Positions 6,788 through 21,040 of a stretch of DNA of 58,277 nucleotides are shown piece after piece. The notes below the pieces were generated by a model that was given only the letters and a program-made list of their open reading frames with translations, did not search any database and had not been told where the DNA came from. This stretch comes from a virus. The translations under genes were made by a program, and so were the position numbers. Position 1 is the stretch's first letter. The number at the start of each line of letters is the position of its first letter. The stretch is taken from the IMG/VR virus record IMGVR_UViG_3300045988_058281, positions 1 through 58,277 of that record, one strand, 5' to 3'.

Positions 6788-6817
6788 TTGACAGGGAAGA
6801 TATAAATTATATATAAT
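6788..6817 (+). promoter_or_regulatory. sigma-A-type promoter upstream of DUF551/terL
   Basis: TTGACA (6788..6793), 18-nt spacer, TATAAT (6812..6817). Confidence 0.5.
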
Positions 6818-7031: not shown

Positions 7032-7253
7032 ATGGACTGGATCAAAGTAACGCCTGAGACTATGCCGCCGGATATGGAGCCGGTGATGGTGACGCTGATG
7101 TTTAGTGACGCTGATGGAAAGTTCGTGTGGGCGGATGCCCGATACAACGGCGTGAAATGGGAATATCTATCAAATAGCTGGGATAACGTGTGGAGCGACG
7201 TAGATGGGGAGGTAACTCACTGGATGCCGTACCCAGAACCGGCGGAAGATTGA
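7032..7253 (+). CDS. DUF551-like phage protein (second copy)
   Basis: Start MDWIKVTPE with a GGAGGGAA RBS. VTHWMPYPEP motif. Confidence 0.75.
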   Translation: MDWIKVTPETMPPDMEPVMVTLMFSDADGKFVWADARYNGVKWEYLSNSWDNVWSDVDGEVTHWMPYPEPAED

Positions 7254-7261: not shown

Positions 7262-7305
7262 AGTGCCAAGTGCCTCTCCAGATGGAGCGAACAGTGCCAA
7301 GTGCC
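7262..7305 (+). promoter_or_regulatory. AGTGCCAAGTGCC motif pair A (terL leader)
   Basis: Exact 13-mers at 7262..7274 and 7293..7305. Confidence 0.75.
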
Positions 7306-7336
7306 TTTTATCTTACGGGATAGGAGGCACTTTTTT
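7299..7336 (+). terminator. terminator-like / RBS-sequestering hairpin
   Basis: AAGTGCCT (7299..7306) pairs with AGGCACTT (7325..7332). A T-run extends to 7336. The 3' arm overlaps the GGAGG RBS (7323..7327). Confidence 0.5.
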
Positions 7337-7337
7337 C

Positions 7338-8981
7338 GTGGAAATTCGAGAGTTAGTAGTGAGGGCATTTCAGAGAGATTTGTCCGACCCGTCTGCGCTA
7401 TCTGATGCGTTTGATTCAATTAGGCTGTTGGAGCCGGAAGATTTTTCGCTGGCACACGAGCGGAACAAGGAGGTGCGGCGGCTGTCTGCAAAATTCGCCG
7501 CAGAACAAAAAAGCCTCCGCATGTTCGAGCTAAACAAGCGGAGTCTGCTGTTTGATGCCCCGTATGATTTTGACTGTTTTCTTCGTTATATTGAGTGGAA
7601 TAGGCCAAATGACAAGCGGTTTTATTTGCCACGCAGAAAGGTTCTTCTCTCCATCGTAAATGCGTTTCAGCAAGTAGCGGATGGAGCGTTAGACTTGCTG
7701 ACAGTCAGCCAGCCTAAGAGAACTGGTAAGACCACGCTCGGATTGATGTTTGTTTTGTTCCGCGCAGGACAACATCCTGGAGGTTCTTCTATCTGTTCCG
7801 GTGCGGGCAATGATCTGGTAAAATCGTTTTACACTGGATGCCTGGATATTCTGCAAAAGCCGGAGGAGTATCTGTACTACGATGTGTTCCCGAAAGCGAG
7901 GCTTGCGGCTACCAACGCGGACGAAAAGACCATCCACCTCGAAAAGAAAAAGCGGTTTGCCACAATCACTTGCCGGAGTATCGACGGTGCTCTAACCGGT
8001 TCTACAGAGTCTACACCAGAAGGTGTAATGTACCTGGATGACCTTGTGTCTGACGAGCTGGAGGCGAACAACAGAAACCGCCTTGACACTTTGTGGGATA
8101 AAGTGCGCGGCGATTTGCTGGGCCGTCGTTTGGAAGGGTGCCCGATTGTAGCGCAGGGCACACGGTACAGTCTGTATGACCCCTTGGGCCGCTTACAGGA
8201 AATTGCACCTACAATGGGGTGGCGCACAAAGGTTGTTGAAATTCCGGCTCTTGACCCAGTTACCGATGAAAGCAATTTTGAGATTATCTTGAATGGGAAA
8301 CCAGCGTTTACGACGGAATATTACCGGCATGAGCGTGAACTGGTGACACCTGTTCAGTGGGCCAGTCAGTTTCAACAGGAGCCGTTTGAGGCAAAAGGCC
8401 TGCTATTCCCGGAAAATGAACTGAACAGATATTTTGAGTTGCCGGTAGATCAAGAGCCGGATGCCATTATCTCTGTATGCGATACGGCTGAAGGAGGCGG
8501 AGATAGCGTTATGATGCCGATTGCGTACATCTACGGTGAAGATGTATTTATTGAAGATTGTGTGTTTGACAACAGCACCCCGGAAGTCACAAAGCCACAG
8601 TGTGCTAAGAAGCTGGTAGAGCACAAGGTTTCGGTTGCCACCTTTGAGAGCAACAACGCAGGAACTTACTTTGCCCGTGACGTTGAAGAACTGGTCAAAA
8701 AAGTGGGCGGTCGAGTGAGCATAAGAACACGGCGTACTATCAGCAACAAACAGACACGCATTGAAATGGCCTCTGACGGAATTTTGAAGCACTTCTACTT
8801 CAAGGATAAGTCTCTATATAAACCGTCCGATCAATACGGACAGATGATGCGTGAGCTGGTGACATATACGAGAACAGGCAAGGTAAAACACGACGACAGC
8901 CCTGACGGATTAAGCCTTCTTGAAAATGAAATTCGCAACTTAACTTGGGGGAAAGCAGAAGTGTTTAAGCGTCCGTTTTAA
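7338..8981 (+). CDS. terL: terminase large subunit
   Basis: GTG at 7338 lies 10 nt after GGAGG. The track start at 7263 lies inside the motif and was rejected. Walker A is PKRTGKTT. The C-terminal nuclease region has KHDDSPD. Confidence 0.9.
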   Translation: MEIRELVVRAFQRDLSDPSALSDAFDSIRLLEPEDFSLAHERNKEVRRLSAKFAAEQKSLRMFELNKRSLLFDAPYDFDCFLRYIEWNRPNDKRFYLPRRKVLLSIVNAFQQVADGALDLLTVSQPKRTGKTTLGLMFVLFRAGQHPGGSSICSGAGNDLVKSFYTGCLDILQKPEEYLYYDVFPKARLAATNADEKTIHLEKKKRFATITCRSIDGALTGSTESTPEGVMYLDDLVSDELEANNRNRLDTLWDKVRGDLLGRRLEGCPIVAQGTRYSLYDPLGRLQEIAPTMGWRTKVVEIPALDPVTDESNFEIILNGKPAFTTEYYRHERELVTPVQWASQFQQEPFEAKGLLFPENELNRYFELPVDQEPDAIISVCDTAEGGGDSVMMPIAYIYGEDVFIEDCVFDNSTPEVTKPQCAKKLVEHKVSVATFESNNAGTYFARDVEELVKKVGGRVSIRTRRTISNKQTRIEMASDGILKHFYFKDKSLYKPSDQYGQMMRELVTYTRTGKVKHDDSPDGLSLLENEIRNLTWGKAEVFKRPF

Positions 8982-9061
8982 CATCACATACAATCCATAA
9001 TAAATATATAAATATTTGTAATACGAGAGGAATGTGGTACAATATATGTGAGGTGAGTGCA

Positions 9062-9865
9062 GTGGAAAAGAACAACGACAAAAAATGGATTGGTCAAAAA
9101 TTTGGGAGATTGACTGTCATCGGATTTGAGAAGAAAAAGGAGCCAAGTAGAGGATGGAATTGGGTGTGCAAGTGCGACTGTGGAAATAAAAAGGTAGTAT
9201 CGCCGCAAGATGTAAAATTAGGAAAAACAAAGTCGTGTGGGTGTTATCACGACGAGGTGTGTAAATCCCGTGCAACCAAATATAATCATTTAGTTAAAGA
9301 TTATCCAAGATTACATAGGATATATCACTGGATGAAACGAAGATGCTATGATCCTAAAACACCAAGATACGAAGATTATGGTGGGAGAGGGATTTCAGTT
9401 TCAAGAGAATGGATGGATAAAGCGCATGGATTTGATAATTTTGCGCAATGGTCAATAGATAATGGGTATTCAGATCAACTCACGCTTGATAGGATAGACG
9501 TAAACGGGGATTATTGCCCAGAAAATTGCAGGTGGATAACATATAAAGAACAGAACGGAAATAAGAGAGATACAAAATGGGTTGTTTATCAAGGAGAAAA
9601 AATTCAACTTAAAAAACTATGCGAGAAAATGGGCGTTTGCTATGACACTGTTCATAATCGCATATATTCTTTGGGGTGGGATGTCGAACGTGCTATTATG
9701 GAGCCATCACAACAAGAAAATTCTCTCAGGAAAAAATGCAAAGAAAAGGGTATGAATTATGGGACGGTAAGAAGCCGAATAAAGCAATTCGGATGGTCAG
9801 AAGAACGCGCACTAAACACACCATCTGTTGGACGTGGGGCAAGCAAAAAGACATATACGAAATGA
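9062..9865 (+). CDS. free-standing HNH-type homing endonuclease with tandem C-terminal HTH modules
   Basis: GRLTVIG...CKCDCGNKKVV...SCGC zinc module, YGGRGISV...LTLDRIDVNGDYCPENCRW HNH-like core, and two repeats of G..Y.TV..RI...GW..ERA. AT-rich. An alternative ATG lies at 9032. Confidence 0.75.
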   Translation: MEKNNDKKWIGQKFGRLTVIGFEKKKEPSRGWNWVCKCDCGNKKVVSPQDVKLGKTKSCGCYHDEVCKSRATKYNHLVKDYPRLHRIYHWMKRRCYDPKTPRYEDYGGRGISVSREWMDKAHGFDNFAQWSIDNGYSDQLTLDRIDVNGDYCPENCRWITYKEQNGNKRDTKWVVYQGEKIQLKKLCEKMGVCYDTVHNRIYSLGWDVERAIMEPSQQENSLRKKCKEKGMNYGTVRSRIKQFGWSEERALNTPSVGRGASKKTYTK

Positions 9866-9866
9866 C

Positions 9867-9950
9867 GCTTTTGATACTTGGGCAATGTTTGCTGAGTATG
9901 CCCAACAACTTGAAGGAAACAAGGTGGAGGTATTCCGGCGTCCGTTTTAA
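9867..9950 (+). pseudogene. orphan duplicate of the terL 3' end
   Basis: Encodes AFDTWAMFAEYAQQLEGNKVEVFRRPF*, compared with the terL end DGLSLLENEIRNLTWGKAEVFKRPF*. The last 13 nt, GCGTCCGTTTTAA, are identical. Confidence 0.6.
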
Positions 9951-9975
9951 AATACAAAATATTGCGCATAAACTA

Positions 9976-10004
9976 TTGATAAGCACTATATATTGTGATA
10001 TAAT
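9976..10004 (+). promoter_or_regulatory. near-consensus extended -10 sigma-A promoter of the large RNA
   Basis: TTGATA (9976..9981), 17-nt spacer, TGaTATAAT (9996..10004). Confidence 0.7.
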
Positions 10005-10010
10005 AAAACT

Positions 10011-10750
10011 GGTAGGTAGATTCCTACCACCTGTCCACCATCTTTTTTCTCACCTCCTTCACACGGATGGGGTGGCGGCGATAGTGTCGCTGCCCCTACT
10101 GTGTGAAATATATGCCGCACGAGTGAATCAGCCCAAGAATCCGGGCCGGAGGGTCGCCCCCTCCATGCGGCAAAGTAAGCTGTCTCAAAGTACACGAGGC
10201 TGACTGTGGAAAGACACTATACCGGAGGCTTACAGTGCCTAATTATGCACCGGAGAAGGGTAAAGGGCACCCGCCTGTCATGGAGGCGGAAGCGGTGGCA
10301 CTATGACGGCCACTGAGTGTGCCGACACTTGTAAAGCGGCTGCGCCCGGCGGAGCGTGTAGAGACGGAATCCGCCAACATGCAGGGGCCAGAAGCAGGGT
10401 AGCTCCCAGGCTGTGCAACTCAGTCCACCTGCTATATTGGGTCGCTCCCATCCGTGGAAGCCGGACGCTTGTGTAGGGCGATAGCTACCAGCGCTATCCT
10501 GCTGAAAACTGCCGTGTTTGCCTGTGCACGGGCCTCCCAATACGGTGTGACAATCTAAGCGGGAAGCGCATATATGCCTCTCCTCGCCGCATGAGGCGGG
10601 CGGTGGCACCATTGAGCGGTGGCGGAATAAGGTAGACGCTGACTGGTAGGGGGATACACTCGGTGGAAGTCCGGGGGGCCTGGTGGTTAGGTAAACACGC
10701 CCTATGGAACCACGCTGTGAGGTGCAAATCCTCACCCGCTCAAACAATAT
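10011..10750 (+). ncRNA. large structured noncoding RNA (class unassigned; ROOL/GOLLD-like context)
   Basis: No plus-strand ORF of 60 aa or more. Dense GC-rich helices, for example 10011..10028, 10074..10094, 10113..10119/10166..10172, 10148..10164, 10271..10289, 10717..10735. Directly followed by tRNAs. Confidence 0.6.
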
Positions 10751-10824
10751 ACGGGTGTAGCTCAATGGAGAGCGTCGGATTCCAAATCCGGAGGTTGGGG
10801 GAACAGAGCCTTCCACCCGTGCCA
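10751..10824 (+). tRNA. tRNA-like element, anticodon CCA (Trp), non-canonical T-loop
   Basis: Acceptor ACGGGTG/CACCCGT plus GCCA, D arm GCTC/GAGC, anticodon loop TTCCAAA. The T arm GGGGG-AACAGAG-CCTTC lacks TTC. Confidence 0.5.
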
Positions 10825-10910
10825 GGGCGCAAGTCCTGACAGAGTTTCTTGGCGAAAGGCAAGTGAGCAAAGCCGAAAAACTCACAACATACCCCGAAAG
10901 GGGTATATCT

Positions 10911-10984
10911 GGACCATTGGCCCGATGGTCGGGCGGGCCCCTCATAAGGGCTTGGTCTTGGTTCGATTCCAAGATGGTCCACCA
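10911..10984 (+). tRNA. tRNA-Met (anticodon CAT; could be Ile2 if lysidinylated), CCA encoded
   Basis: Full cloverleaf: GGACCAT/ATGGTCC acceptor, GCCC/GGGC D stem, CTCATAA loop, CTTGG-TTCGATT-CCAAG T arm. Confidence 0.85.
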
Positions 10985-11010
10985 GAATTAGAAAGGAGTC
11001 GCCCAACTGA

Positions 11011-11178
11011 ATGAAGATTGACATTTATTGTCCGGTCTGTGCCGCTGCTGGCATCAATCATGGAAAAGGGCGGCTTTTGATGCAGGTGGATAGCAAGGCA
11101 GTTGGTGTTGTTTACCCATACTGTAAGGCTTGCAAGAAGAACATCAAAATCGAATTGAAAGGCGAAAAGAGCGCCTGA
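11011..11178 (+). CDS. 55-aa zinc-ribbon protein (2x CxxC; Com-like topology)
   Basis: MKIDIYCPVCAAAG...YPYCKACKKNIKIEL. AAAGGAG RBS. Below the ORF-track size cut-off. Sits immediately upstream of motif pair B. Confidence 0.6.
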   Translation: MKIDIYCPVCAAAGINHGKGRLLMQVDSKAVGVVYPYCKACKKNIKIELKGEKSA

Positions 11179-11191
11179 AAATATATAGTTT

Positions 11192-11239
11192 AGTGCCAAG
11201 TGCCTCCGGGCAATGCCTGGACGAAGCGTGCCAAGTGCC
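11192..11239 (+). promoter_or_regulatory. AGTGCCAAGTGCC motif pair B (portal leader)
   Basis: AGTGCCAAGTGCC at 11192..11204 and CGTGCCAAGTGCC at 11227..11239. Confidence 0.75.
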
Positions 11240-11286
11240 GATCAGTTACCGAGAAATCCTCGGTAGTTGGTCGGCATTTTTGTTTG
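11236..11286 (+). terminator. strong intrinsic terminator immediately upstream of the portal RBS
   Basis: 18-bp stem (11236..11253 / 11259..11276, several G-U pairs), loop AAATC, then TTTTTGTTTG. The 5' arm starts inside the motif. Confidence 0.8.
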
Positions 11287-11301
11287 TCTGGAGGTGACAA
11301 G

Positions 11302-12792
11302 GTGACTGAAAACGATACTGTTCGAGCTATATCTGAGTGGCCGGTTGATGGGCTGACCGGTCGGCGTAAAATCTACACCACAAAAAAGCGAGTCACCCCG
11401 GAAAACGTGGTGGAGGTGCTGGGCAAGGCACTGGCCGTGCATCGCATCAACAGGGCGGAAATGTCCTATTTGTATGACTATTACAGAGGCAAACAGGACA
11501 TCCGGTTGAAAGATAAAATCGTCCGCCCGGAGATCAACAACAAGGTGATGATTAACCGGGCGAACGAAATCGTGGTCTTCAAGTCTGCTTACCTCCTGGA
11601 TGGCCCAATCCGCTATGTGTCCAACGGTGGAGAAGATGATATTTCCGCCAGTGTGAACACGCTCAACGAGTACATGCGATCTGAGAGTAAAGACACTCTC
11701 GACAAGGAGCTGGCCGACTGGATGCACATCTGCGGTGTAGCGGTTCGTATGGTACTTCCCGATGAGGCTGGGGAGGAAGATGGCTCTCCCGCCTCTATCT
11801 ACACCCTTGACCCGAGGGCGGCGTTTTGCATCTACCACAGTGGCGTAGGGCAGAAAAAGGTCGCTGGTGTTCTGGAACAGGTAGACGAGGAGGGCAAGCC
11901 CTACTTCTGCGTGTACACCCCCGAATGGTATTTTGAGGTGCAGAACGGCCAGATCACTAAGCAGGAAGCCCGTACCATCCCCTACATCCCCATTGTAGAG
12001 TATGTGAATAACGACGCCCGCATGGGTGCGTTTGAGCCAGTTATCCCCATTCTGAACGCGATCAATATGATTGAGTCCAATAGGTTGGACAGTATTCAGG
12101 ATTTTGTCAACGCATATGATGTGTTCCAAAACTGCGAACTAGAAGATGGCAAATACAAAGAACTGGCAAAGGGCGGCATGGCGATAAAAATAAGGAGTTT
12201 TGACCAGACCAAAGACGCCAAGGTCTACCGCATTGCTTCTGAACTGAACCAGACCAACACGCAGACCATTGTGGACGATCTGGAAGACGCATACCTGACG
12301 ATTTGTGGGATGCCGAACCGGAACGGCGGTTCCTCTACAAGCGACACCGGGCAGGCGGTCATTTACCGGGATGGTTGGTCTGCCGCAGAGAGCCGGGCAA
12401 AGGACACGGAAAAGACCTGGGAGCGGTCGGAGCGGGAGTTCCTGCGGCTGGTTCTGTATATCTGCCGTGAGACTGGCGTTTTGGGTTTGCAGTTGGCCGA
12501 CATCAAGCCGGAGTTTACCCGCAAGAACCTGTCCAACATCCAGTCCAAGGCCCAAGTGCTGGCGGAAATGCTGAACAACAGCAAGATTCATCCGAAGTTG
12601 GCGTTCCAGTACAGCGGGCTATTCAGCGACCCAGAGGACGCATACAGGATCAGCATGGAATATGCAGAAGAACAGCAACGCAAAATGGAGCGGAGTTTGA
12701 GGGATGAACTGAATGCCAACAGAAACGAATCCGTACAGACTGGCGGACAAAGCAATAGACCTCCTGAACAGCCGAGCAGTCAAGCGGTTTGA
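11302..12792 (+). CDS. portal protein (SPP1 gp6-like)
   Basis: GTG at 11302 follows GGAGGTG. YLYDYYRGKQDI...INNKVMINRANEIV motifs. Confidence 0.9.
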   Translation: MTENDTVRAISEWPVDGLTGRRKIYTTKKRVTPENVVEVLGKALAVHRINRAEMSYLYDYYRGKQDIRLKDKIVRPEINNKVMINRANEIVVFKSAYLLDGPIRYVSNGGEDDISASVNTLNEYMRSESKDTLDKELADWMHICGVAVRMVLPDEAGEEDGSPASIYTLDPRAAFCIYHSGVGQKKVAGVLEQVDEEGKPYFCVYTPEWYFEVQNGQITKQEARTIPYIPIVEYVNNDARMGAFEPVIPILNAINMIESNRLDSIQDFVNAYDVFQNCELEDGKYKELAKGGMAIKIRSFDQTKDAKVYRIASELNQTNTQTIVDDLEDAYLTICGMPNRNGGSSTSDTGQAVIYRDGWSAAESRAKDTEKTWERSEREFLRLVLYICRETGVLGLQLADIKPEFTRKNLSNIQSKAQVLAEMLNNSKIHPKLAFQYSGLFSDPEDAYRISMEYAEEQQRKMERSLRDELNANRNESVQTGGQSNRPPEQPSSQAV

Positions 12793-13333
12793 GGACGCAA
12801 AAGATGAAGCGGCGCAGAAGGGCTTTGACGAGCTCAATGTGCTGGAAGTCACCCGGACGCTATATGACCAGCTGCGCAAGGACAACCAAGATGTCTTTCT
12901 TGAACTGGCGCAAGAGCGGTATCAGGAAGCCGAACCGCACGGAGAGAAACCGCCTGATTTAGCCTGGCTGCTGGCTCTGCTGGCGGCGTACAACGCTGTG
13001 ACGAAATACCAGTATTCCCATGAATGGGAGCGAAAGCGTGACCGGACAGCGGAGGCTATTAACTCTACTACCGCAAAAGTTACAGAGTTCCGACGGGGCC
13101 TTTCATATTGGGCGCAGATGACGGAATGGTATGCGGTGGAAGTAACAGACCAGTCCACACTGAAAGCATTTCAAGACAGCGGTGTGCGCTATGTAAAATG
13201 GAACACTATGAATGATGGACGGGAGTGTTCCACTTGTAAGGAGCGAGACGGGAAGATTTATCCCATTCGCAGTATTCCACCCAAGCCCCATCCCGGTTGT
13301 CGGTGCTGGTATACACCGACGGAGAAAAAGTGA
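12713..13333 (+). CDS. head morphogenesis protein (SPP1 gp7 / Mu F-like)
   Basis: C-terminal VKWNTMNDGRECSTCKERDGKIY...HPGCRCW motif. Overlaps the portal 3' end by 80 nt. Confidence 0.8.
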   Translation: MPTETNPYRLADKAIDLLNSRAVKRFEDAKDEAAQKGFDELNVLEVTRTLYDQLRKDNQDVFLELAQERYQEAEPHGEKPPDLAWLLALLAAYNAVTKYQYSHEWERKRDRTAEAINSTTAKVTEFRRGLSYWAQMTEWYAVEVTDQSTLKAFQDSGVRYVKWNTMNDGRECSTCKERDGKIYPIRSIPPKPHPGCRCWYTPTEKK

Positions 13334-13426
13334 ATAAACGGGCGGCTATCCCGACGGGGAGAAAAGTGGAGTGCCTTGCCACCTGCCGCCTGTTCATTCA
13401 ACAAGGCTGACTATTGGAGGCGATAG

Positions 13427-14035
13427 TTGATGGAAGAAATTTGGAAAGATATTGACGGGTTTGAAGGGCTTTATCAGGTAAGTAATTTTGGAAATGTTAT
13501 GAGTCTTAATTATGGTAATAGAGGATATGCAAAAAAACTAACTCCGAAATGTAACAATAGCGGAAGGCTTTGGGTTGAATTACTGAAGGGCGGAAAAAGA
13601 AAGTGCATGTTAGTTCACCGGCTTGTTGCGCTTGCTTTTATACCGAATCCGAACAATTTCCCGCAAATAAACCACAAAGATGAAAATCCCAAAAATAATT
13701 TTGCTTTTAATTTGGAATGGTGTACTCAATCTTATAATAATCACTACTCTATTGAACGGCATCCGGAATATTCAATACATTTGAGGAGGAAAAAGAGGGC
13801 GCCAACAGGAGCGGAGTGGCACCGCATCCACGATGGAGAAAACCGAAACAATAGAAAGCCATCTAAATTGTCGTTCCCAGTATTGCAATATGATAAAGCA
13901 GGAAAGTTACTAAAAAAGTGGGAAACGCTATATTCCGCTTACAAGGAAAATAATTGGAATGCGTCTTCCATCAAAGAATGCTGTGAAATGAAGAGAAAAA
14001 CGGCATATGGTTTTATCTGGCGATACGTCAGTTAA
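13427..14035 (+). CDS. HNH homing endonuclease (NUMOD4 + HNH_3-like)
   Basis: WKDIDGFEGLYQVSNFGNV, then VHRLVALAFIPNPNNFPQINHKDENPKNN...LEW. AT-rich insert between head genes. Confidence 0.85.
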   Translation: MMEEIWKDIDGFEGLYQVSNFGNVMSLNYGNRGYAKKLTPKCNNSGRLWVELLKGGKRKCMLVHRLVALAFIPNPNNFPQINHKDENPKNNFAFNLEWCTQSYNNHYSIERHPEYSIHLRRKKRAPTGAEWHRIHDGENRNNRKPSKLSFPVLQYDKAGKLLKKWETLYSAYKENNWNASSIKECCEMKRKTAYGFIWRYVS

Positions 14036-14150
14036 ATATGAGGGGAAGAGAATCCGCTCATTAAAGAAATCTCGCAAGCTCACAGAGAAGTGAGAATAAT
14101 CAAACGCAAGAATAAGACGGAGATGTCTATAAGCGCAAAGGAGAGTTTAT

Positions 14151-14723: not shown

Positions 14724-14742
14724 TTGAAAAGGAGAGAAACAG

Positions 14743-15075
14743 ATGAAGTTTACCAAGACTTCTGTTGGCGGCACCATTGAGATTCTGGCCGCTGACGATT
14801 TTGTGGCGATCCCCATTTGTGTCACGGAAGCCGCTGCTGTCCCTGCCGGTATGCCCATGACCGCTGCGGGAAAGAAAGTGGCAACCACCTCTTATGCTAC
14901 CGCTGTTGGTATGCTGCTGTATGATGTGGACCCGACCGAGAACCCCAATGGCGCTTTGCTGGTGCAGGGTGTGGTGGACAAGAAAAAGGTTGAATCTCAT
15001 GCGAGTATTACGCTGGACGCCACTTTCGACGTACCCGGCATTATCCTGCGGGACAACATTGGCGTGAACGAGTAA
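14743..15075 (+). CDS. putative head decoration/cement protein
   Basis: 110 aa between the scaffold and major capsid genes. Call is by position and size only. Confidence 0.4.
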   Translation: MKFTKTSVGGTIEILAADDFVAIPICVTEAAAVPAGMPMTAAGKKVATTSYATAVGMLLYDVDPTENPNGALLVQGVVDKKKVESHASITLDATFDVPGIILRDNIGVNE

Positions 15076-15088
15076 GGAGGGATACATA

Positions 15089-16159
15089 ATGGATTTGAGA
15101 GAAATTTTTACCCCTGCTGCGATTGCGGCAAACTGGACTGAGGTTGCCTCCAACCAGATTCCCTACTTGGGCGCTACGCTGTTCCCCGCCCGCAAGAAGG
15201 CTGGTCTTGACTTGTCCTGGCTGAAAGGCTCCCGTGGGCTGCCTGTCTCTCTGATGCCTTCTGCGTTTGACGCCAAGGCAACCTTCCGTGACCGTATCGG
15301 CTTTGAGAAATTGGAAACTGAAATGCCGTTCTTCCGTGAGGGATACAAGATCAAGGAGAAAGATCGCCAGGAGATGCTGCGGGTGCAGGAGTCTACCGAC
15401 CCCTATGCCGCTGAGGTGATTGCCCGTGTGTTTGACGATACCCGTGACCTGATTGACGGCGCGAACGTTGTTCCTGAGCGCATGATTATGCAGCTGCTGT
15501 TCCCGGAGGGCGGAGATGCGGGCATTGCAATCAAGGCAAACGGGGTGGACTACACCTGCAAGTATGATACGGACGGTTCCTGGAAGACCTCTAACTATAC
15601 CGCTCTGACCAGCACCGCCACCTGGGACAAGCCCTCTACGGCTGATCCATTTGCAGCGTTTAAGATGGTCAAGGATGCAATTCGCTCTAAAACTGGCACT
15701 GAGTTAACAGTTGCCATTATGAACTCCTATACCTTCAATCTTCTGGCAAAGACGGATGCGGTGAAGAACCGTTATCTGACCACCAATGCGATTTCCCTTG
15801 CTTATCTGACTGACACAGAGGTAAAGGCTGTTATCGAGTCTACAGCGGGGCTTCGTATTGCAATTTACGACAAGCAGTTCCGGGACGAGAGTAAAGTTGC
15901 ACATCCGTTTGTGCCCAATGGCTATGTTTGCCTGATTCCAGACGGTGCTCTTGGTAGTACTTGGTATGGCACCACTCCGGAAGAGGCAGATCTGCGCGGG
16001 GCGTCCAGCGCCGAGGTTTCCATCGTGAATACAGGTGTAGCAATTACCCGTATTCTTCAGGAGCATCCTGTAAACATCAACACCTTTGCGTCTGAAATCG
16101 TCCTGCCCTCCTTCGATCGTATGGACGAGGTGGCGGTGATCAACGTCCTGGGGGAATAA
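15089..16159 (+). CDS. major capsid protein (lambda gpE-like family)
   Basis: 356 aa with a TAAGGAGG RBS. The N-terminal FTPAAIAANWTEVASNQIPYLGATLFP pattern is typical of the capsid-E family. Confidence 0.8.
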   Translation: MDLREIFTPAAIAANWTEVASNQIPYLGATLFPARKKAGLDLSWLKGSRGLPVSLMPSAFDAKATFRDRIGFEKLETEMPFFREGYKIKEKDRQEMLRVQESTDPYAAEVIARVFDDTRDLIDGANVVPERMIMQLLFPEGGDAGIAIKANGVDYTCKYDTDGSWKTSNYTALTSTATWDKPSTADPFAAFKMVKDAIRSKTGTELTVAIMNSYTFNLLAKTDAVKNRYLTTNAISLAYLTDTEVKAVIESTAGLRIAIYDKQFRDESKVAHPFVPNGYVCLIPDGALGSTWYGTTPEEADLRGASSAEVSIVNTGVAITRILQEHPVNINTFASEIVLPSFDRMDEVAVINVLGE

Positions 16160-16161
16160 TT

Positions 16162-16201
16162 GGGTCTGACACTCTAACCCTTTTCCCCGGCAGTCAGACC
16201 C
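16162..16201 (+). terminator. stem-loop after the capsid gene (possible attenuator)
   Basis: GGGTCTGAC (16162..16170) pairs with GTCAGACCC (16193..16201). No clear U-tract. Confidence 0.35.
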
Positions 16202-16203
16202 TA

Positions 16204-16527
16204 TTGAGGAAGCAAGTGTCCGAGCTGGTAGGAGATGACCTGACGGTCAAGGCCGATGGCTCCGTGACCGGTACATTTCATCATGTGACAGGATATACCG
16301 AGTTCAGTTCCGAGCCGGACGAGCAGGAAGGTTATTACTTCCCATTCCACTTGACCAAGACCGGGACCAAGATGACATTTAAGAAAAACGGTTCTCCGAC
16401 CAAGCAGGGCATTACATTTGACCCGGACATTATTTTCCGGGTAACAAAGGATGACACCTTTGAAGTCCTTGTGGATGACAGCAGTGTTGTGAAGTTCAAT
16501 TTTGCTGGGGCCACATTTGAGAGCTAA
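16204..16527 (+). CDS. hypothetical head-associated protein
   Basis: 107-aa ORF. TTG start at 16204, or GTG at 16216. Confidence 0.5.
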   Translation: MRKQVSELVGDDLTVKADGSVTGTFHHVTGYTEFSSEPDEQEGYYFPFHLTKTGTKMTFKKNGSPTKQGITFDPDIIFRVTKDDTFEVLVDDSSVVKFNFAGATFES

Positions 16528-16543
16528 AAAAGCGGGAGGCAGC

Positions 16544-16759
16544 ATGAAGTTTATTCCAAATTACCGCGTGTGCTACGATGGCCGATTTTATGAGGCTGGT
16601 GTTCAGTTCCCTATCAAGGCCGACGACGCGGATATGATGAAGCGGCACGGGACGGTGTTGGATGAACCGACGCCGCCTCCCGCCGCACCTAAAAAGCCGG
16701 GCAGACCTAGGAGGGCGGACAATGGACAATCTGGCGAGGTTGAAACTCCGCACGAATGA
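16544..16759 (+). CDS. hypothetical protein
   Basis: ATG at 16544 follows GGGAGG. 71 aa with a Pro/Lys-rich tail. Confidence 0.5.
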   Translation: MKFIPNYRVCYDGRFYEAGVQFPIKADDADMMKRHGTVLDEPTPPPAAPKKPGRPRRADNGQSGEVETPHE

Positions 16760-17027
16760 GCCGGACGATGCTATCCTGGAGGACTGCCTAGAAAGCGCAA
16801 AAGCGGCGATCATGGCGAGGCGATATCCTTTCCAGGAGTGGCCGGACGAACTGGAAAGCCGGTATCTGGATTTGCAGTTCCGGGTGGCTCTTGCAATTTA
16901 CAACAAGCAGGGCGGTGAATTTGAAACTGCTCACACTGAAAACGGCGTGTCCAGGTCTTACGGTTCGGAGGGGATTCCACAGGAACTTCTTTTAGAAGTG
17001 ACACCGCTTGCAAAGACCATGCAGTAG
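16722..17027 (+). CDS. head-tail connector (gp6-like)
   Basis: ATG at 16722 follows TAGGAGGG. LKLRTNEPDDAILEDCLESAKAAI is typical of gp6-like connectors. Confidence 0.65.
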   Translation: MDNLARLKLRTNEPDDAILEDCLESAKAAIMARRYPFQEWPDELESRYLDLQFRVALAIYNKQGGEFETAHTENGVSRSYGSEGIPQELLLEVTPLAKTMQ

Positions 17028-17093
17028 GGGGCGATTATCTTCCGCAATTTTTTAGCAAATACACAGCCTATTTTTTTCAAAAACCTTGTTGGT

Positions 17094-17540
17094 ATGGAAG
17101 AGCTGGTTGATGAATTCGGGAACAGTCTCGGAAGTTACCTCCCCATTTACAGCGCATTGAAATCCGCTATGCTGTGTGTCTCCCCAAACAAGGGAAATTC
17201 CGAAGTGGAGCAGTTTGGCTCTTTGGAAGATTACGATCGGACGGCAACCACCGCAGACACGGCCTGCCAAATTGACGAGGATTCTGTTTTGTGGGTAGAT
17301 GGGGCCGATACTGACGGCCCGTATAACTACATTGTGAAGCGGAAAGCACCGTGGAAGAACAGTATTCAATACGCTATCAAAAAGGTTTCTGTATCCGAGT
17401 ACGAAGCGGAACAAAAACTGTTTGATAGAAAAGCAGAGATTGAGGCGGCGATGCTAAGTGCCAAAGATCAAACTGAAGCTGAGCACGGACTCGATCAACC
17501 AAGCGTTGAAGGAAGTCAAGGCGTATCAGAAGAAGGTTGA
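17094..17540 (+). CDS. putative head-closure protein (N-terminus uncertain)
   Basis: The frame is open from the upstream TAG (17025..17027). The first canonical start is ATG at 17094. Call is mainly by position. Confidence 0.45.
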   Translation: MEELVDEFGNSLGSYLPIYSALKSAMLCVSPNKGNSEVEQFGSLEDYDRTATTADTACQIDEDSVLWVDGADTDGPYNYIVKRKAPWKNSIQYAIKKVSVSEYEAEQKLFDRKAEIEAAMLSAKDQTEAEHGLDQPSVEGSQGVSEEG

Positions 17541-17940
17541 AAAAGCCGCTGATGATCTGGTGAGAAGGCTCACAGAGCAAGGCGTATCCCTGGCCCAATT
17601 GAATGCATCCTATATGGATATCTATGACACTGGAGAACTGATGCGTGGCATTGAAAGCCAGTACAAAGGAAAGATTGGATTTGTTGTGTCCACAGCTACA
17701 CACTCCATCTTCTGTGAGTTCGGAACGGGCATCGTTGGAGCACAGAACCCGCATCCAGAGGTTGCGATTGCTGGATGGAGATACGATGTGAACGAGCATG
17801 GGCAACTAGGCTGGTGGTACATTGGTCGAGACGGAAAATCCCACTGGACAAAGGGAATGCCAAGCCGACCGTACATGTACGAGACCGCTAAGATGTTACG
17901 TAGCATGGTTGTGCCACTGGCAAAGGAGGTAATGTGTTGA
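17458..17940 (+). CDS. HK97 gp10-family tail-completion protein
   Basis: GTG start. IFCEFGTG motif and size are typical of the family. Confidence 0.7.
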   Translation: MPKIKLKLSTDSINQALKEVKAYQKKVEKAADDLVRRLTEQGVSLAQLNASYMDIYDTGELMRGIESQYKGKIGFVVSTATHSIFCEFGTGIVGAQNPHPEVAIAGWRYDVNEHGQLGWWYIGRDGKSHWTKGMPSRPYMYETAKMLRSMVVPLAKEVMC

Positions 17941-18344
17941 TAGACATTGAATCGTTCCTTTTCAGTCAAATCGCAGGGGCGCTTCGTTCCACTTATGATG
18001 GAATTTTTGTGTCTGGCGAATATGTAGACAGCCCCGCAAAATTTCCGGCCGTCACCATCGTTGAAAGCGACAACAACGTGCTTCAAAAAATGAGAACGGC
18101 AGCGCCAAATCTGGAAAACGCCGTATCGCTGATGTACGAGGTAAACGTCTACACGAACAGTGTAGGGTACAAGAAGTCCGAGGCAAAGGATATCATGGAG
18201 ACCATCGACAATGAGTTTTCCAAGATTGGCTTCACAAGAACCATGTGCAATCCAGTGTCCAACTTGCAGGACGCCACTATTTACCGCATTGTCGCCCGGT
18301 ATGAGGGCGTAGCGGACAAGAATTTTAGAATCTACACAAAATAA
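17934..18344 (+). CDS. putative tail terminator protein
   Basis: GTG/TTG start after AGGAGG. 136 aa immediately upstream of the major tail gene. Confidence 0.5.
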   Translation: MLIDIESFLFSQIAGALRSTYDGIFVSGEYVDSPAKFPAVTIVESDNNVLQKMRTAAPNLENAVSLMYEVNVYTNSVGYKKSEAKDIMETIDNEFSKIGFTRTMCNPVSNLQDATIYRIVARYEGVADKNFRIYTK

Positions 18345-18355
18345 AAAGGGCTGAC

Positions 18356-18383
18356 AGTGCCGAGTGCCTTTGTGCCAAGTGCC
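18356..18383 (+). promoter_or_regulatory. AGTGCCAAGTGCC motif pair C (major tail leader)
   Basis: AGTGCCGAGTGCC at 18356..18368 and TGTGCCAAGTGCC at 18371..18383. Confidence 0.75.
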
Positions 18384-18412
18384 TCCCTAAAAAATTAGGA
18401 GGTACTATTTTT
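18378..18412 (+). terminator. terminator-like hairpin that sequesters the RBS
   Basis: 12-bp stem with one bulge (18378..18390 / 18395..18406), AAAA loop, then ATTTTT. The 3' arm contains AGGAGG (18397..18402). ATG is at 18413. Confidence 0.7.
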
Positions 18413-18931
18413 ATGGCTGGAATCCAACTTAGCACCGCGGGCGTGAAACTCCTTTATGCGGCTGAGGCCACGGCTGGCACCCGCCCTACTACGGGCTATA
18501 AAGAGATTAGCGAAATCAAGAGCATCCCGGAACTGAACCCAGAGCCTGATAACCTGGAGACAACCACGCTGGCGGAAACCGAATGGAAAACCTACATCCC
18601 GGGCCTGAAGGATATTGGAGGTGCGCTGTCCTTTACGGCAAACCTGACCGAAAAGTCTATGGAGGAATGGGAGGGAGTTGTTGATGCCTATGATACGGCG
18701 GCTGCTGATAATAAGGCAACCTGGTTCTGTATCTTGATTCCTGGTCTGACTAAGGTCCTGTATTTTACCGGGAAGCCCTCCCCGATGGGTATGCCCGGTA
18801 TGGAGGTTTCCGCTGTCCTGGAGACGACCCTTTACATCACCCCGACCGGTGCGCCTCAGTGGGAGGCTAAGCCTACTGATCTGGAGACAATGAGTCTCAA
18901 GTCCGCGAGAAGTAAGACTGTAGAAGTTTAA
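18413..18931 (+). CDS. major tail protein
   Basis: 172 aa. The MAGIQLSTAGVKLLYA...TTTL pattern is typical of siphovirus major tail proteins. Confidence 0.8.
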   Translation: MAGIQLSTAGVKLLYAAEATAGTRPTTGYKEISEIKSIPELNPEPDNLETTTLAETEWKTYIPGLKDIGGALSFTANLTEKSMEEWEGVVDAYDTAAADNKATWFCILIPGLTKVLYFTGKPSPMGMPGMEVSAVLETTLYITPTGAPQWEAKPTDLETMSLKSARSKTVEV

Positions 18932-18943
18932 GGAGGAAAAGAC

Positions 18944-19315
18944 ATGAGCGATAAGATCATTGATATGAAGGACCGAGTTAATCCTGCCCGTGTAACTGAC
19001 CATGATACTGGAACGGTTTATGAACTGGACTTCACTAGAGAGAGCGTAAAGTTTGCGGAGAACCGTGGATTCAAGGTTGACGAACTGACGGTTTTCCCCG
19101 TGACCAGAATCCCGGAGCTGTTCTACTATGCGTTCAGAAAGAACCATAAGAATGTGTCCCGGTCCCAGACCGATGATCTTCTGGAAGGTATGGGAGGTAT
19201 GACAACTGCCCTGCTGGAGAGGCTGATGCAGCTTTACAATCAGGCCGCTCTTACACATCTTATCGCCACTGACGAGGATGCCGTAAAAAACGCGAAGGTG
19301 ACTGTGGAGCTGTAA
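18944..19315 (+). CDS. tail assembly chaperone (gpG-like)
   Basis: 123 aa between the major tail and tape measure genes. GGAGGAAAAG RBS. Confidence 0.7.
   Translation: MSDKIIDMKDRVNPARVTDHDTGTVYELDFTRESVKFAENRGFKVDELTVFPVTRIPELFYYAFRKNHKNVSRSQTDDLLEGMGGMTTALLERLMQLYNQAALTHLIATDEDAVKNAKVTVEL
19285..19291 (+). promoter_or_regulatory. programmed -1 frameshift slippery heptamer A_AAA_AAC
   Basis: In-frame GTA AAA AAC in the chaperone ORF. The -1 frame is open from 19273 through 19701. Confidence 0.6.
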
Positions 19316-19701
19316 AAGGCCCACAGTCCTTCACGGATCTATTTGAAGCGGAGTGCCCCTACTATCTGTCCATCGGCATGACTTGGGAACAGTATTGGTA
19401 TGGCGATGTATGGATGGTAGAGGGATTCCGTGAGGCAGATAAGCTTAATCGGAGAAGGACAAATGCGGCGGCCCACATGATGGGAATGTACATTTATGAA
19501 GCCTTCTGTGATGTAGCTCCAGTTCTCCATGCTTTTGCAAAGAAGGGCACGAAGCCTATTCCCTATAGAACAGAGCCGTATCCAATGAGAGGAGAAGAAA
19601 AGACAAAGCTGGAATCAAGTCAAGAGATTGAAAACGAGCGTTTGAAAGCACAGCTTTTCTTCAGAAATTGGGCTAGATCTGCCCAAAAGAAATTCGGATA
19701 G
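19291..19701 (+). CDS. -1 frame extension of the tail chaperone (gpGT-like C-terminal part)
   Basis: The -1 frame relative to 18944..19315 encodes ...DLFEAECPYYLSIGMTWEQYWYGD... An internal ATG at 19378 has no RBS. Confidence 0.6.
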   Translation, partial: REGDCGAVKGPQSFTDLFEAECPYYLSIGMTWEQYWYGDVWMVEGFREADKLNRRRTNAAAHMMGMYIYEAFCDVAPVLHAFAKKGTKPIPYRTEPYPMRGEEKTKLESSQEIENERLKAQLFFRNWARSAQKKFG

Positions 19702-19724
19702 TTCTCCGGTTTGTACCTTGAAAA

Positions 19725-19752
19725 CTTTATATTGAGATAGCGGAGATTTTGA
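19725..19752 (+). repeat. repeat copy 1 (CTTTATATTGAGATAGCGGAGATTTTGA)
   Basis: 19725..19743 is the exact reverse complement of 20946..20964. 19731..19752 matches 20338..20359 at 20 of 22 positions. Confidence 0.85.
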
Positions 19753-19787
19753 AAAAAGAATTTCTGTAAAAATTATATCGACAGAAT

Positions 19788-19816
19788 TTGATAGCGGGAA
19801 AAATGGAGTATATAAT
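19788..19816 (+). promoter_or_regulatory. consensus sigma-A promoter of toxin locus 2
   Basis: TTGATA (19788..19793), 17 nt, TATAAT (19811..19816). 6 nt further downstream is the G of GTGGAAACCC. Confidence 0.7.
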
Positions 19817-19951
19817 GATAACGTGGAAACCCGCTGTCGCAATAGAGAGAGACAGCGACGGTTAAAAGGACGGTTGCCTGACATCCCGCGAGTGCGGAAT
19901 GGAGGCGTGTATAGAGCCCTCGCGGGAAATTTTCCTGGGGAGGTGATATAC

Positions 19952-20038
19952 ATAACTCTTCAAAATTTGTTTTGGATCGTTTCTATCATCTGGATCATTA
20001 TCCAGGTGTGGGATAAATTCCGAGACAAAAAGAAGTGA
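19952..20038 (+). CDS. 28-aa hydrophobic Lys-tailed peptide, locus 2 (no AUG; putative AUA start)
   Basis: ITLQNLFWIVSIIWIIIQVWDKFRDKKK. ATA lies 8 nt after GGAGG (19939..19943). The alternative GTG at 19943 overlaps the RBS. Confidence 0.5.
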   Translation: MTLQNLFWIVSIIWIIIQVWDKFRDKKK

Positions 20039-20141
20039 GCCGTCTGCCGCAAACAGAAGGCTCACTGCGTGGTTGGGGCTGACACCCCGGCTATGTATGG
20101 AGTAGCTTATGTACTGTGGCAACCGTCTTTAGGGTTTCCAC
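20025..20141 (-). ncRNA. candidate antisense (antitoxin) RNA of locus 2
   Basis: Minus-strand promoter is TTGATT (20175..20170), 16 nt, TATAAT (20153..20148). Terminator hairpin at 20065..20035, with a U-tract templated by the Lys codons. Confidence 0.55.
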
Positions 20142-20195
20142 ACTTTTATTATAGTATTTTAGGGAAAAAAATCAAGCGATTTTGAAAAAAATATC

Positions 20196-20224
20196 TTGCA
20201 ATCTTAGCGAGCGAATAGTATAAT
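20196..20224 (+). promoter_or_regulatory. sigma-A promoter of the moron ORF
   Basis: TTGCAA (20196..20201), 17 nt, TATAAT (20219..20224). Confidence 0.6.
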
Positions 20225-20337
20225 ATTTCCCTGCTTTCAAATGGTCTTAAAAATTATCTCTCAACTTTATCACAAGTAAATTCTTTTGTCAACTGAAAAT
20301 GGAGATTTGACGAAAATAAATTCGATGTCTTAAGTTA

Positions 20338-20359
20338 ATTGGGATAGCAGAGATTTTGA
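20338..20359 (+). repeat. repeat copy 2 (direct; ATTGGGATAGCAGAGATTTTGA)
   Basis: Matches 19731..19752 at 20 of 22 positions. Lies about 50 nt upstream of ORF 20410. Confidence 0.8.
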
Positions 20360-20409
20360 TTGCTTCCTCCCTCGAATTATGGTAAGATTTGGGGGGGAGG
20401 GGATATTTT

Positions 20410-20859
20410 ATGAGATGCCCTGTAATAGTACAAAGAGAAAGTAAAAGTGCTGGAGCATTGGGTGGAATAATAATTAAAATAGACTCTTCTGAGGTTGCAA
20501 AAATTCAAAACGGAAAAAGTGTAAAATTATTTGTAGAAGAGGGAAATCACACAATTTCGTTTTGCGTTGGTCGGAAAGCAATCAAAACGTTGAATTTTTC
20601 GGCCTTCCCCGATCAGGATGAAATATTTATCAAATGTTATATAAAATCGAATTGGGGAATTACGCCTGTTATAGAAGCTTATATATCGAATGTTGTTGTA
20701 GCAACAGACAGAACAAATGACAATGGTACACAAACAAACAATAAGTCCGCATGGAAGCAAATTCCTTTGTTAGTTCGTATTGTTATTTGGATTTTTGCTA
20801 TTGGATTTCTATGGCAATTCATTGTCGGATTTTTCTGGGGAATGTCCATTGGGCTTTAA
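20410..20859 (+). CDS. moron-encoded C-terminally membrane-anchored protein
   Basis: 149 aa with a GGGGGGAGGGG RBS. AT-rich, with its own promoter and terminator. The C-terminal TM region is IPLLVRIVIWIFAIGFLWQFIVGFFWG. Confidence 0.7.
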   Translation: MRCPVIVQRESKSAGALGGIIIKIDSSEVAKIQNGKSVKLFVEEGNHTISFCVGRKAIKTLNFSAFPDQDEIFIKCYIKSNWGITPVIEAYISNVVVATDRTNDNGTQTNNKSAWKQIPLLVRIVIWIFAIGFLWQFIVGFFWGMSIGL

Positions 20860-20868
20860 TAAATTTAT

Positions 20869-20908
20869 TTACCCTCCGCTTAGAAATAGGCGGAGGGTAA
20901 AATTTTTT
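20869..20908 (+). terminator. intrinsic terminator
   Basis: TTACCCTCCGC pairs with GCGGAGGGTAA (11 bp), followed by AATTTTTT. Confidence 0.85.
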
Positions 20909-20945
20909 GGAAATCTTGAAAAGATAACTAAATAACTCGAAGTCC

Positions 20946-20964
20946 CCGCTATCTCAATATAAAG
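20946..20964 (-). repeat. repeat copy 3 (inverted)
   Basis: CCGCTATCTCAATATAAAG is the reverse complement of 19725..19743. Confidence 0.85.
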
Positions 20965-20990
20965 GAGGCAGCGGGGATCTTTATATTTTC

Positions 20991-21018
20991 AGTGCCAAGT
21001 GCCACAGTGCCAAGTGCC
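20991..21018 (+). promoter_or_regulatory. AGTGCCAAGTGCC motif pair D (tape measure leader)
   Basis: Exact 13-mers at 20991..21003 and 21006..21018. Confidence 0.75.
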
Positions 21019-21040
21019 ATACTTAAAAAGGTGGTGGCAC
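21014..21040 (+). promoter_or_regulatory. hairpin enclosing the tape-measure RBS
   Basis: GTGCCA (21014..21019) pairs with TGGCAC (21035..21040). The loop contains AAGGTGG. ATG is at 21042. No U-tract. Confidence 0.45.

Follow-up and report, generated by a model that had tools for sequence, protein, structure and literature searches.

Why should four late genes of a single phage each follow the same pair of short repeats, with the second repeat built into a hairpin every time? In this study we focus on IMG/VR record IMGVR_UViG_3300045988_058281, positions 1 to 58,277, a stretch of viral DNA hereafter called the window, which looks like a complete temperate siphovirus. The repeats lie upstream of its large terminase (terL), portal, major tail and tape-measure genes, in leaders that we number sites or gates 1 to 4, and a small zinc-ribbon gene ends just before the second pair. 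On the strength of sequence comparisons we propose, with a probability of roughly 0.6, that a Com-like zinc-ribbon RNA-binding activator would both antiterminate transcription and unmask translation at these late-operon gates.

Paired repeats and hairpins at four late-gene leaders

The pattern GTGCCRAGTGCC is found eight times in the window, always on the plus strand, against a shuffle expectation of 0.02, and none of 100 shuffles reached eight matches. The match starts (7263/7294, 11193/11228, 18357/18372 and 20992/21007) form four pairs that precede the terL, portal, major tail and tape-measure genes respectively, as the initial annotation had described the eight copies. It had also noted that seven of the eight share one 12-mer, GTGCCAAGTGCC, which is true; the match at 18357 reads GTGCCGAGTGCC. 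Its count of exactly four leaders was examined with scans of both strands. No copy of the 13-mer beyond the eight exists in the whole window with up to one mismatch, the single match with two mismatches lies on the minus strand at 42186, and the relaxed pattern GNGCC-N1-3-GNGCC adds no leader-type site on either strand, so that the count is valid for the window. An antisense RNA or a tRNA was considered as the partner of the repeat and rejected, since a complementary copy was not found in the window.

One RNA leader element recurs at all four sites, each time with two single-stranded repeats, R1 and R2, written (A)GUGCCAAGUGCC (Table 1). The leader hairpins are the minimum-free-energy (MFE) structures, and R2 forms the 5′ base of each. 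Hairpins built on the last AAGTGCC had been predicted at all four sites and are found at the positions given for them; the further claim that the 3′ arm always covers the ribosome-binding site (RBS) fails at site 2. There, the portal RBS (GGAGG, 11290-11294) and the GTG start (11302) lie directly downstream of the terminator. The long stem predicted at this site does exist, from about 11234 to 11278 and with TTTTTGTTTG directly after it; the count of 18 base pairs given for it is replaced by the one in Table 1. At site 1 the Shine-Dalgarno (SD) sequence AGGAGG (7322-7327) is inside the 3′ arm, and terL starts with GTG at 7338. The hairpin of site 3 is both terminator-like and RBS-sequestering, and site 4, where the hairpin ends 1 nucleotide (nt) before the ATG at 21042, is a purely translational gate. 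At sites 1 and 2 and, in a weaker form, at site 3, a G+C-rich stem directly followed by a U-tract precedes the regulated gene, and no promoter lies between them.

The identity of the downstream genes was taken from Pfam, which assigns 7338-8981 to the large terminases, 11302-12792 to the SPP1-type portal proteins and 18413-18931 to the lambda-like tail tube proteins. The product of 21042-24689 (1215 residues) has no Pfam match, and we name it tape measure from its size and position.

One further pairing was observed at site 2. In the MFE structure of 11200-11300, CCUCCGGGCAA, which directly follows R1 and is the 5′ arm of the spacer hairpin, pairs with UUGUCUGGAGG of the portal RBS region. This pairing is an alternative to the spacer hairpin and would also hide the portal RBS.

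Conservation of the leaders and action in RNA

The element had been called phage-specific, which does not hold: it is common to a clade of Oscillospirales phages. A scan of IMG/VR for the exact pair retrieved at least 115 stretches, and the pair is also present in prophages of the cultured isolate Flavonifractor sp. An92 (NZ_NFGZ01000002.1, with five sites) and of Ruminococcaceae/Clostridiales metagenome-assembled genomes (MAGs). The linkage of motif and hairpin is conserved in these relatives in more than 110 distinct instances with unrelated stem sequences. The pooled loci give 120 distinct instances, and in 112 of these the MFE hairpin includes the last GUGCC as a paired segment; at least 20 of the stem sequences are alike in nothing but the GUGCC...GGCAC base. 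In 20-kb loci around the zinc-ribbon genes described below, all of the 146 pairs are on the gene strand.

Covariation was evaluated in an alignment of 70 distinct hairpins that was normalised for register, the register being derived from each sequence's own fold, a caveat for the following figures: 87.6% of the cells pair, compared with 42-52% when the partner is slid, double-sided changes number 205 versus 78 in shuffles, and the covariation score of 0.54 versus 0.20 was attained by none of 500 shuffles. The two copies are 2-3 nt or 17-23 nt apart, save for one lineage in which 65 nt separate the 12-mers (77 nt between their starts). Long gaps, such as those of sites 1 and 2, always contain a hairpin, for which at least ten unrelated stems that still pair were seen, followed by an A-rich linker of 5-6 nt. 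G-U pairs are present in the stems, and the start codon lies 6-16 nt from the hairpin; at sites 3 and 4 of the window, the pair is 23-30 nt from the ATG. No -35/-10 signal at a fixed distance was found in 62 non-redundant upstream regions, the only signals there being richness in A/T and an A as the first letter of the motif. The gene-strand rule, the unrelated stems that nevertheless pair and the lack of a fixed upstream promoter signal indicate that the element acts in RNA. Furthermore, the covariation of the spacer hairpin, the G-U pairs, the fusion to the leader hairpin and the tight spacing to the genes place the element in the transcript.

The nature of the gate depends on the gene. Leaders of terL are terminators with the SD mostly in the 3′ arm (U-run after the hairpin in 35 of 36, SD-like sequence in the 3′ arm in 31), and portal leaders are terminators with the SD outside (33 and 3 of 34). 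Major tail leaders are mixed (9 and 10 of 12). Finally, tape-measure leaders, whose hairpin ends at the start codon, have a U-run in 0 of 12 and an SD-like 3′ arm in 6; they are purely translational gates, like the translation-inhibition structure of Mu mom. As gates with a terminator and gates without any U-run share one motif, the recogniser must keep the base of the hairpin open, and no terminator-specific trick would suffice. The distinct open reading frames (ORFs) found downstream of the motif encode portal proteins (64), terL (54), tape measures (28), major tail proteins (17) and 15 other products, including a DNA methyltransferase, a terS-like and a scaffold-like protein. Terminator-like hairpins are also found directly upstream of the motif in several relatives.

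Seven relatives (L011, on the minus strand at about 1603, L047, L067, L096, L100, L102 and L110) carry a motif-terminator leader before the DNA methyltransferase gene (MNLKVRL...DLPYGTT...). This placement echoes the control of mom/methyltransferase genes by Com in Mu-like prophages.

In variant sites, what is conserved is the core CC-AA-GUG of each copy and not the full 13-mer. Indeed, some relatives retain only CCAAGUG twice, as GUGCCAAGUGUUUAAUUACCAAGUGCC in L187 and in similar form in L184 and L118. Phages further removed carry just one unit, GUGCC-UG/CUG-AGUGCC in L199, GAGCC-CU/UU-GAGCC in L200 and GAGCC-GUU-GAGCC in L206, at two leaders per phage and with each copy fused to a terminator. 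Judging from these sequences, the common denominator of all variants is CC-N2-3-G(U/A)G. Two other matches of the pattern scans are not leaders: at least four tandem CCAAGTG heptads in L033 (5555-5590), and many degenerate motif copies in an apparent repetitive coding region of L097 (1199-1400).

A zinc-ribbon candidate and its resemblance to Mu Com

The ORF at 11011-11178 had been put forward as a possible trans-acting factor, and this suggestion gains from its linkage to the motif, from a change of the motif along its lineages, from a match to the Com profile at 92.6% probability and from an RNA core of the Com format. The CPxC...CKxC signature is invariant in the family alignment, and the AlphaFold2 (AF2) model is a confident zinc ribbon (predicted local distance difference test score 91.3). 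Homologues with 40-100% identity are found in 64 of the 115 motif loci among the matches listed. Their stop codon lies 0-15 nt before the motif or overlaps it. The family is small, with 67 clusters among 1.84 billion representatives in an exhaustive search with a hidden Markov model. Codons for the last 14 residues are compatible with the motif in 19 of 83 family proteins, in various frames (EPxSR, RAxEP, VPxC, SAKC, SLRAD), while a motif-compatible internal window exists in only 6 of the 83; at the DNA level the overlap of the motif with the 3′ end of the gene is seen in L199, L200 and L206.

In L200 and L206, which carry the most diverged zinc ribbons (YLWCKEDKK, FVWCRECKAE), GAGCC-N2-3-GAGCC replaces GUGCC at both sites. 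Residues P36 and N44, invariant in the alignment of GUGCC-class proteins (A1), are replaced in this GAGCC class and are candidates for reading position 2 of GNG. As far as these sequences tell, the motif changes with the lineage of the zinc-ribbon protein.

A sigma-70-like promoter is predicted 30-100 nt upstream of the zinc-ribbon gene in at least eight diverged lineages, which is unusual for a gene of the structural module and fits a regulator. In the window, the promoter predicted at 9976-10004 could drive the tRNA/zinc-ribbon unit independently of gate 1. In L199 (4712-4790) the zinc-ribbon ORF spans the motif and the 5′ arm of the terminator, with its stop codon in the terminator loop; translation of this ORF could itself block termination, as a ribosome-mediated attenuation layer.

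Searches with the zinc ribbon against Pfam and PHROGs gave nothing significant, only a sub-threshold Cys_rich_KTR match, and neither a PDB sequence search nor Foldseek with the AF2 model returned anything below E = 0.6, which is uninformative for so small a fold. Neither the leader nor the protein was found among the cultured phages of INPHARED, so that no annotated relative is available. The other factor proposed earlier, the product of ORF 35992-36252, is a sigma70_r4-like DNA-binding protein with a region-4 helix-turn-helix (HTH). It has no match in the motif loci, though those loci end short of its genomic position, and no link was found between it and the motif or the RNA element.

The family was then compared with Com by profile-profile alignment. 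An alignment broadened to 28 sequences (A10), including short forms such as IYCPECGKKLLKAD...YPWCKACKKEVEI, matches an alignment of 14 Com proteins (A9) in hhalign with 92.6% probability (E 4.6e-7). Cysteines C7/C10/C38/C41 align to C6/C9/C26/C29, and the KLL stretch is in register. Controls gave 0.2-2.3% (20 column permutations with the Cys columns fixed) and 7-40% (reversed sequences); a comparison of the narrower alignment A1 with Mu Com alone gave 42%, misaligned. Taken on sequence grounds, the zinc-ribbon family is probably a set of remote relatives of Mu Com.

Com is a 62-residue CCCC zinc finger, and SELEX yielded a bipartite motif of two GAG(N)2CC, 2-3 nt apart, while electrophoretic mobility shift assays (EMSA) confirmed the core CC(N)2-3GAG; its sites adjoin and partly overlap the translation-inhibition hairpin (PMC6483171). 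In Mu-like prophages, Com-like genes precede mom/DNA methyltransferase genes (PMC3299994). The system described here shares several features with it: a very small Cys4 zinc-finger protein is encoded immediately upstream of a gene that it controls or, here, would control, a bipartite direct repeat stands by an inhibitory start-site hairpin, and in some relatives a DNA methyltransferase gene follows the motif. RNA cores of the Com format occur as CC-AA-GUG twice in the window and in the L184/L187 variants, and as CC-CU/UU/GUU-GAG in L200 and L206, which match the Com core literally. There are also clear differences. The loop between the Cys pairs counts 23-27 residues here versus 16 in Com, the hosts are Gram-positive and harbour Oscillospirales siphophages and not the Mu-like phages of Proteobacteria, and, unlike the apparently single-stranded repeats here, the Com site occupies the loop of a small hairpin. 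Moreover, each genome has 4-5 essential structural targets (terL, portal, tail tube, tape measure) instead of one accessory gene, and those of the window are not mom or DNA-modification genes. Most of the inhibitory hairpins here are intrinsic terminators, so that control would be transcriptional as well as translational.

Table 1 Positions of the leader elements, the zinc-ribbon gene and nearby predicted signals in the window
Feature	Positions	Strand	Remark
Site 1, copy R1 AGTGCCAAGTGCC	7262..7274	+	upstream of terL
Site 1, spacer hairpin P1 CUCC-AGAU-GGAG, then A-rich linker CGAACA	7276..7287	+	
Site 1, copy R2	7293..7305	+	last AAGUGCC is the 5′ base of the terminator
Site 1, intrinsic terminator	7299..7337	+	stem 7299-7332 and U-run
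Site 2, copy R1	11192..11204	+	upstream of portal gene
Site 2, spacer hairpin P1 UCCGGGC-AAU-GCCUGGA, then linker CGAAG	11205..11221	+	
Site 2, copy R2 CGTGCCAAGTGCC	11227..11239	+	5′ base of the terminator
Site 2, intrinsic terminator	11233..11288	+	19-20 pairs including 3 G-U, then UUUUUGUUUG
Site 3, copy R1 AGTGCCGAGTGCC	18356..18368	+	upstream of major tail gene
Site 3, copy R2	18371..18383	+	
Site 3, hairpin 18378-18406, then AUUUUU	18378..18412	+	GGAGG in 3′ arm; ATG 18413
Site 4, copy R1	20991..21003	+	upstream of tape-measure gene
Site 4, copy R2	21006..21018	+	
Site 4, hairpin sequestering GGUGGUG and the start region	21014..21040	+	without U-run
Zinc-ribbon gene, 55 residues, CPxC...CKxC, net charge about +6	11011..11178	+	stop codon 14 nt before site 2 R1
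Predicted sigma-70-like promoter TTGATA-17-TG-TATAAT	9976..10004	+	ahead of tRNA and zinc-ribbon unit
Predicted consensus promoter TTGACA-18-TATAAT (perfect)	6788..6817	+	450 nt upstream of gate 1
Two motif-free terminator-like hairpins, 20868-20901 and 20944-20990	20868..20990	+	between sites 3 and 4

Proposed opening of the gates, rival explanations and genome context

In the mechanism that we propose, the hairpins would fold when unbound and each late block would be OFF by default, through termination at terL and portal, termination together with SD hiding at the major tail gene, and hiding of the start region at the tape-measure gene. The zinc-ribbon protein, made from its own unit, would bind the repeats in the nascent RNA as these emerge. 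With R2 occupied, the bottom 5-7 base pairs of the hairpin could not close. RNA polymerase would then read through the terminators, because the stem would no longer reach the U-tract, and at the sequestrators the SD and start codon would be exposed. The spacer hairpin probably brings both copies together. All gates would open once the zinc-ribbon protein has accumulated. A promoter of its own probably serves the gene, which stops at gate 2, so that portal expression would receive a feed-forward input as well. RNA binding by the zinc ribbon, the direction of its effect (activation), its stoichiometry and its timing are what we infer from this architecture. The earlier proposal of one cis element coupling late genes to a factor for antitermination or translational activation agrees with all of our computational tests, and this function is likewise deduced from them. 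Extended to the whole clade, the same mechanism would be a late-gene master switch of gut Oscillospirales phages, in which a Com-like protein of 50-60 residues reads single-stranded CC-N2-3-GNG, with GUG or GAG according to lineage, and opens the hairpin bases at every late gate, acting on termination and translation alike; to this wider statement we give an even chance.

Several observations weigh against the role that we assign to the zinc ribbon. Its adjacency to the motif may just be terL - small ORF - portal synteny within one phage clade, and the loci were chosen by motif or by protein, so that the co-occurrence of the two is not independently sampled. Five loci (L201-L205) carry the zinc-ribbon gene without a motif before the portal gene, and the GAGCC class consists at the DNA level of two phages only. 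The relationship to Com depends on one profile-profile comparison of very short zinc-ribbon profiles, which makes the homology probable and not proven; none of 41 scanned family members reaches the threshold of Pfam PF10122 (Zn_ribbon_Com), the best being P0083 with E 0.008 over 11 residues, when Mu Com itself matches with E 2.7e-9. A stem of 19 pairs that loses its 5-7 basal pairs is still strong, and the effect on the RBS at such sites is thus uncertain. Furthermore, should the zinc-ribbon gene depend on read-through of gate 1, the circuit would need leakiness or the gene's own, only predicted, promoter. Finally, a purely local mechanism does not explain how the polymerase passes the two motif-free hairpins before site 4, of which the first is strong and the second is conserved with compensatory changes before the tape-measure sites of relatives; late transcription past them needs leakiness, an unseen promoter or a processive component.

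The last point is an argument for a nut-like loading site, at which a factor, with or without host Nus proteins, would join RNA polymerase and confer long-range terminator resistance, the fused terminators stopping only unmodified polymerase. The motif-free terminators must be passed for 17 kb of tail and lysis genes to be expressed, the terminator-like hairpins directly upstream of the motif in several relatives count in its favour too, and the hairpin and A-rich linker of long-spacer sites loosely resemble boxB/boxA. However, a processive system needs neither 4-5 sites per genome nor the overlap of repeat and terminator stem that is present in nearly all instances, the short-spacer form lacks both hairpin and linker, and at the tape-measure sites, which have no terminator, the effect must be translational. 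We consider this explanation decidedly improbable. Somewhat more credit, though still little, goes to the possibility that the RNA gate works as described and is bound by another phage protein or by an Oscillospirales host protein, the zinc ribbon being just a conserved gene of the packaging module. If the binder were a conserved factor of the host, this would account for the unchanged canonical 12-mer in phages with zinc ribbons up to about 50% different, and the sampling of the loci and the motif-free neighbourhoods of L201-L205 are compatible with it. Against another binder, the motif hugs or overlaps the 3′ end of the ORF across the whole family and in different frames, the switch to GAGCC occurs at both sites in just those phages whose zinc ribbons have diverged most, the family is similar to Com, the RNA code of which follows the same format, and the zinc-ribbon gene often has a predicted promoter of its own inside the structural module.

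The repeats could also be DNA sites of a late activator, with the zinc ribbon acting like Ogr/Delta and each site being a late promoter. Small Cys4 zinc-finger activators of this kind exist in P2 and P4, where they activate several late operons; two of 21 zinc-ribbon members match Pfam Ogr_Delta weakly, at a marginal E of 0.007, and AT-rich sequence, sometimes a terminator, stands just upstream of the pairs. P2 Ogr binds an inverted DNA repeat upstream of promoters, whereas the element here behaves as RNA: the repeat belongs to a hairpin with G-U pairs, copy spacing varies from 15 to 77 nt with the extra length taken up by a hairpin with compensatory changes, the room between pair and ATG at sites 3 and 4 is short, and in L199 and L206 the motif is within coding sequence. 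The position-frequency analysis of the upstream regions, with no -10/-35 at a fixed distance, led us to reject the promoter hypothesis, which we hold to be very improbable. Selfish repeats of the repetitive extragenic palindromic (REP) or miniature inverted-repeat transposable element (MITE) type, or chance, without any regulatory role, have practically no probability left. Nothing beyond the ability of short repeats to spread speaks for them, and they are refuted by the eight copies where 0.02 are expected, by the strand and position rules, strictly kept in more than 100 contigs, and by the coupling to terminators or RBS hairpins with covariation.

The antitermination by a Com-like zinc ribbon that we favour has partial parallels elsewhere. 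In Firmicutes, HutP, the LicT/SacY-type CAT-RAT system and ANTAR EutV also use a protein-binding RNA site in a leader that overlaps the 5′ arm of an intrinsic terminator, so that binding excludes the terminator, and HutP reads two sets of short single-stranded repeats. These proteins have no sequence or fold relation to the zinc ribbon; they sense metabolites or phosphorylation and serve single catabolic operons, whereas here a zinc ribbon of 55 residues would serve a phage late regulon that includes translational gates. The initial annotation had named Mu Com, HK022 put and lambda Q as paradigms. Com fits, and put and Q fit less well than Com or the local RNA-binding antiterminators. In lambda N/nut, HK022 put and lambda Q, late or delayed-early genes likewise stand behind terminators that a phage-specified factor or RNA overcomes. 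However, the nut and put RNAs are structured elements through which RNA polymerase is modified processively, with no overlap with a terminator required, and lambda Q binds DNA at one promoter, whereas the present repeat is fused to each hairpin and recurs at every gate, including hairpins without a U-tract.

No Rfam family (release 15) matches any of the four sites, and E-value scans give chance matches only; at the gathering threshold the whole window contains only RAGATH-31, skipping-rope, int-alpA and tRNAs. The 12-mer was found in the literature only in unrelated human primer sequences. Keyword and sequence searches of PubMed Central and bioRxiv gave no description of the element and nothing equivalent among phage late-gene antiterminators or Com-like late regulators.

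Concerning the genome context, minus-strand ORFs fill 38.8-44.1 kb, a block taken as the lysogeny module from the layout alone, early genes wrap round the ends of the window, and the long plus-strand late region occupies roughly 7-38 kb. At the nucleotide level, cultured phages match only in short patches, in two Flavonifractor phages. Relatives of the zinc ribbon come from Flavonifractor sp. An92 and from Ruminococcaceae, Ruminococcus and Clostridiales MAGs, in addition to a protein named from Anaeromassilibacillus, which indicates a host within the Oscillospirales.

The predicted promoter at 6788-6817 is a possible source of transcripts that would stop at gate 1. It stands directly before a skipping-rope RNA (RF02924, 60.8 bits, 6828-6968), followed by a DUF551 ORF (6984-7253) and gate 1, and the layout of 6788-6968 resembles that of a short constitutive transcript with a regulated terminator at its end. 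A moron-like insert (19788-20990) separates the tail-chaperone region from the tape-measure gene and is composed of a promoter (19788-19816), two ORFs without Pfam match (19823-20038 and 20389-20859) and the two motif-free hairpins. Upstream of the zinc-ribbon gene, a G+C-rich stretch of 550 nt without ORF begins at 10205, before two tRNA-like genes at 10751-10821 (Rfam only) and 10911-10984 (tRNA-Met). Parts of it share 87-95% identity with DNA of two Flavonifractor phages, Castelnaud and Chenonceau, whose annotation gives hypothetical proteins there; the non-coding stretch 10205-10745 has no Rfam match and no folding signal (z = -0.04). In the head module, an int-alpA RNA (RF02996, 13339-13406) is flanked by an ORF for Mu F-like head morphogenesis (12713-13333) and one for a NUMOD4/HNH homing endonuclease (13427-14035), and the region 12713-14035 looks like a mobile insertion. 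A RAGATH-31 RNA (RF03101, 83.2 bits, 36778-36831) is located just downstream of the HTH ORF. The end of the early region encodes a serine resolvase/invertase (4459-5067) and a protein with an Mrr-type restriction endonuclease domain (5381-5953).

For the timing of late genes in temperate phages of the dominant gut Firmicutes, the element described here offers a concrete, testable mechanism in one clade. Com-type activation itself is known; the novelty, in the best-supported reading, is the extension of Com-type RNA-binding activation to multi-gate antitermination of a phage structural regulon. If this is true, the Com paradigm would be extended from one accessory gene to a whole structural regulon, with a specificity that is apparently re-programmable, and Com-like proteins would form a broader class of tiny RNA-binding regulators that act on terminators as well as on ribosome sites. 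The short code and its natural GUG/GAG variants could be turned into an RNA switch, compact and orthogonal, for the synthetic biology of Gram-positive anaerobes. Moreover, the motif marks late-operon boundaries in uncultured phage genomes and flags a small protein family that has hitherto been left unannotated.

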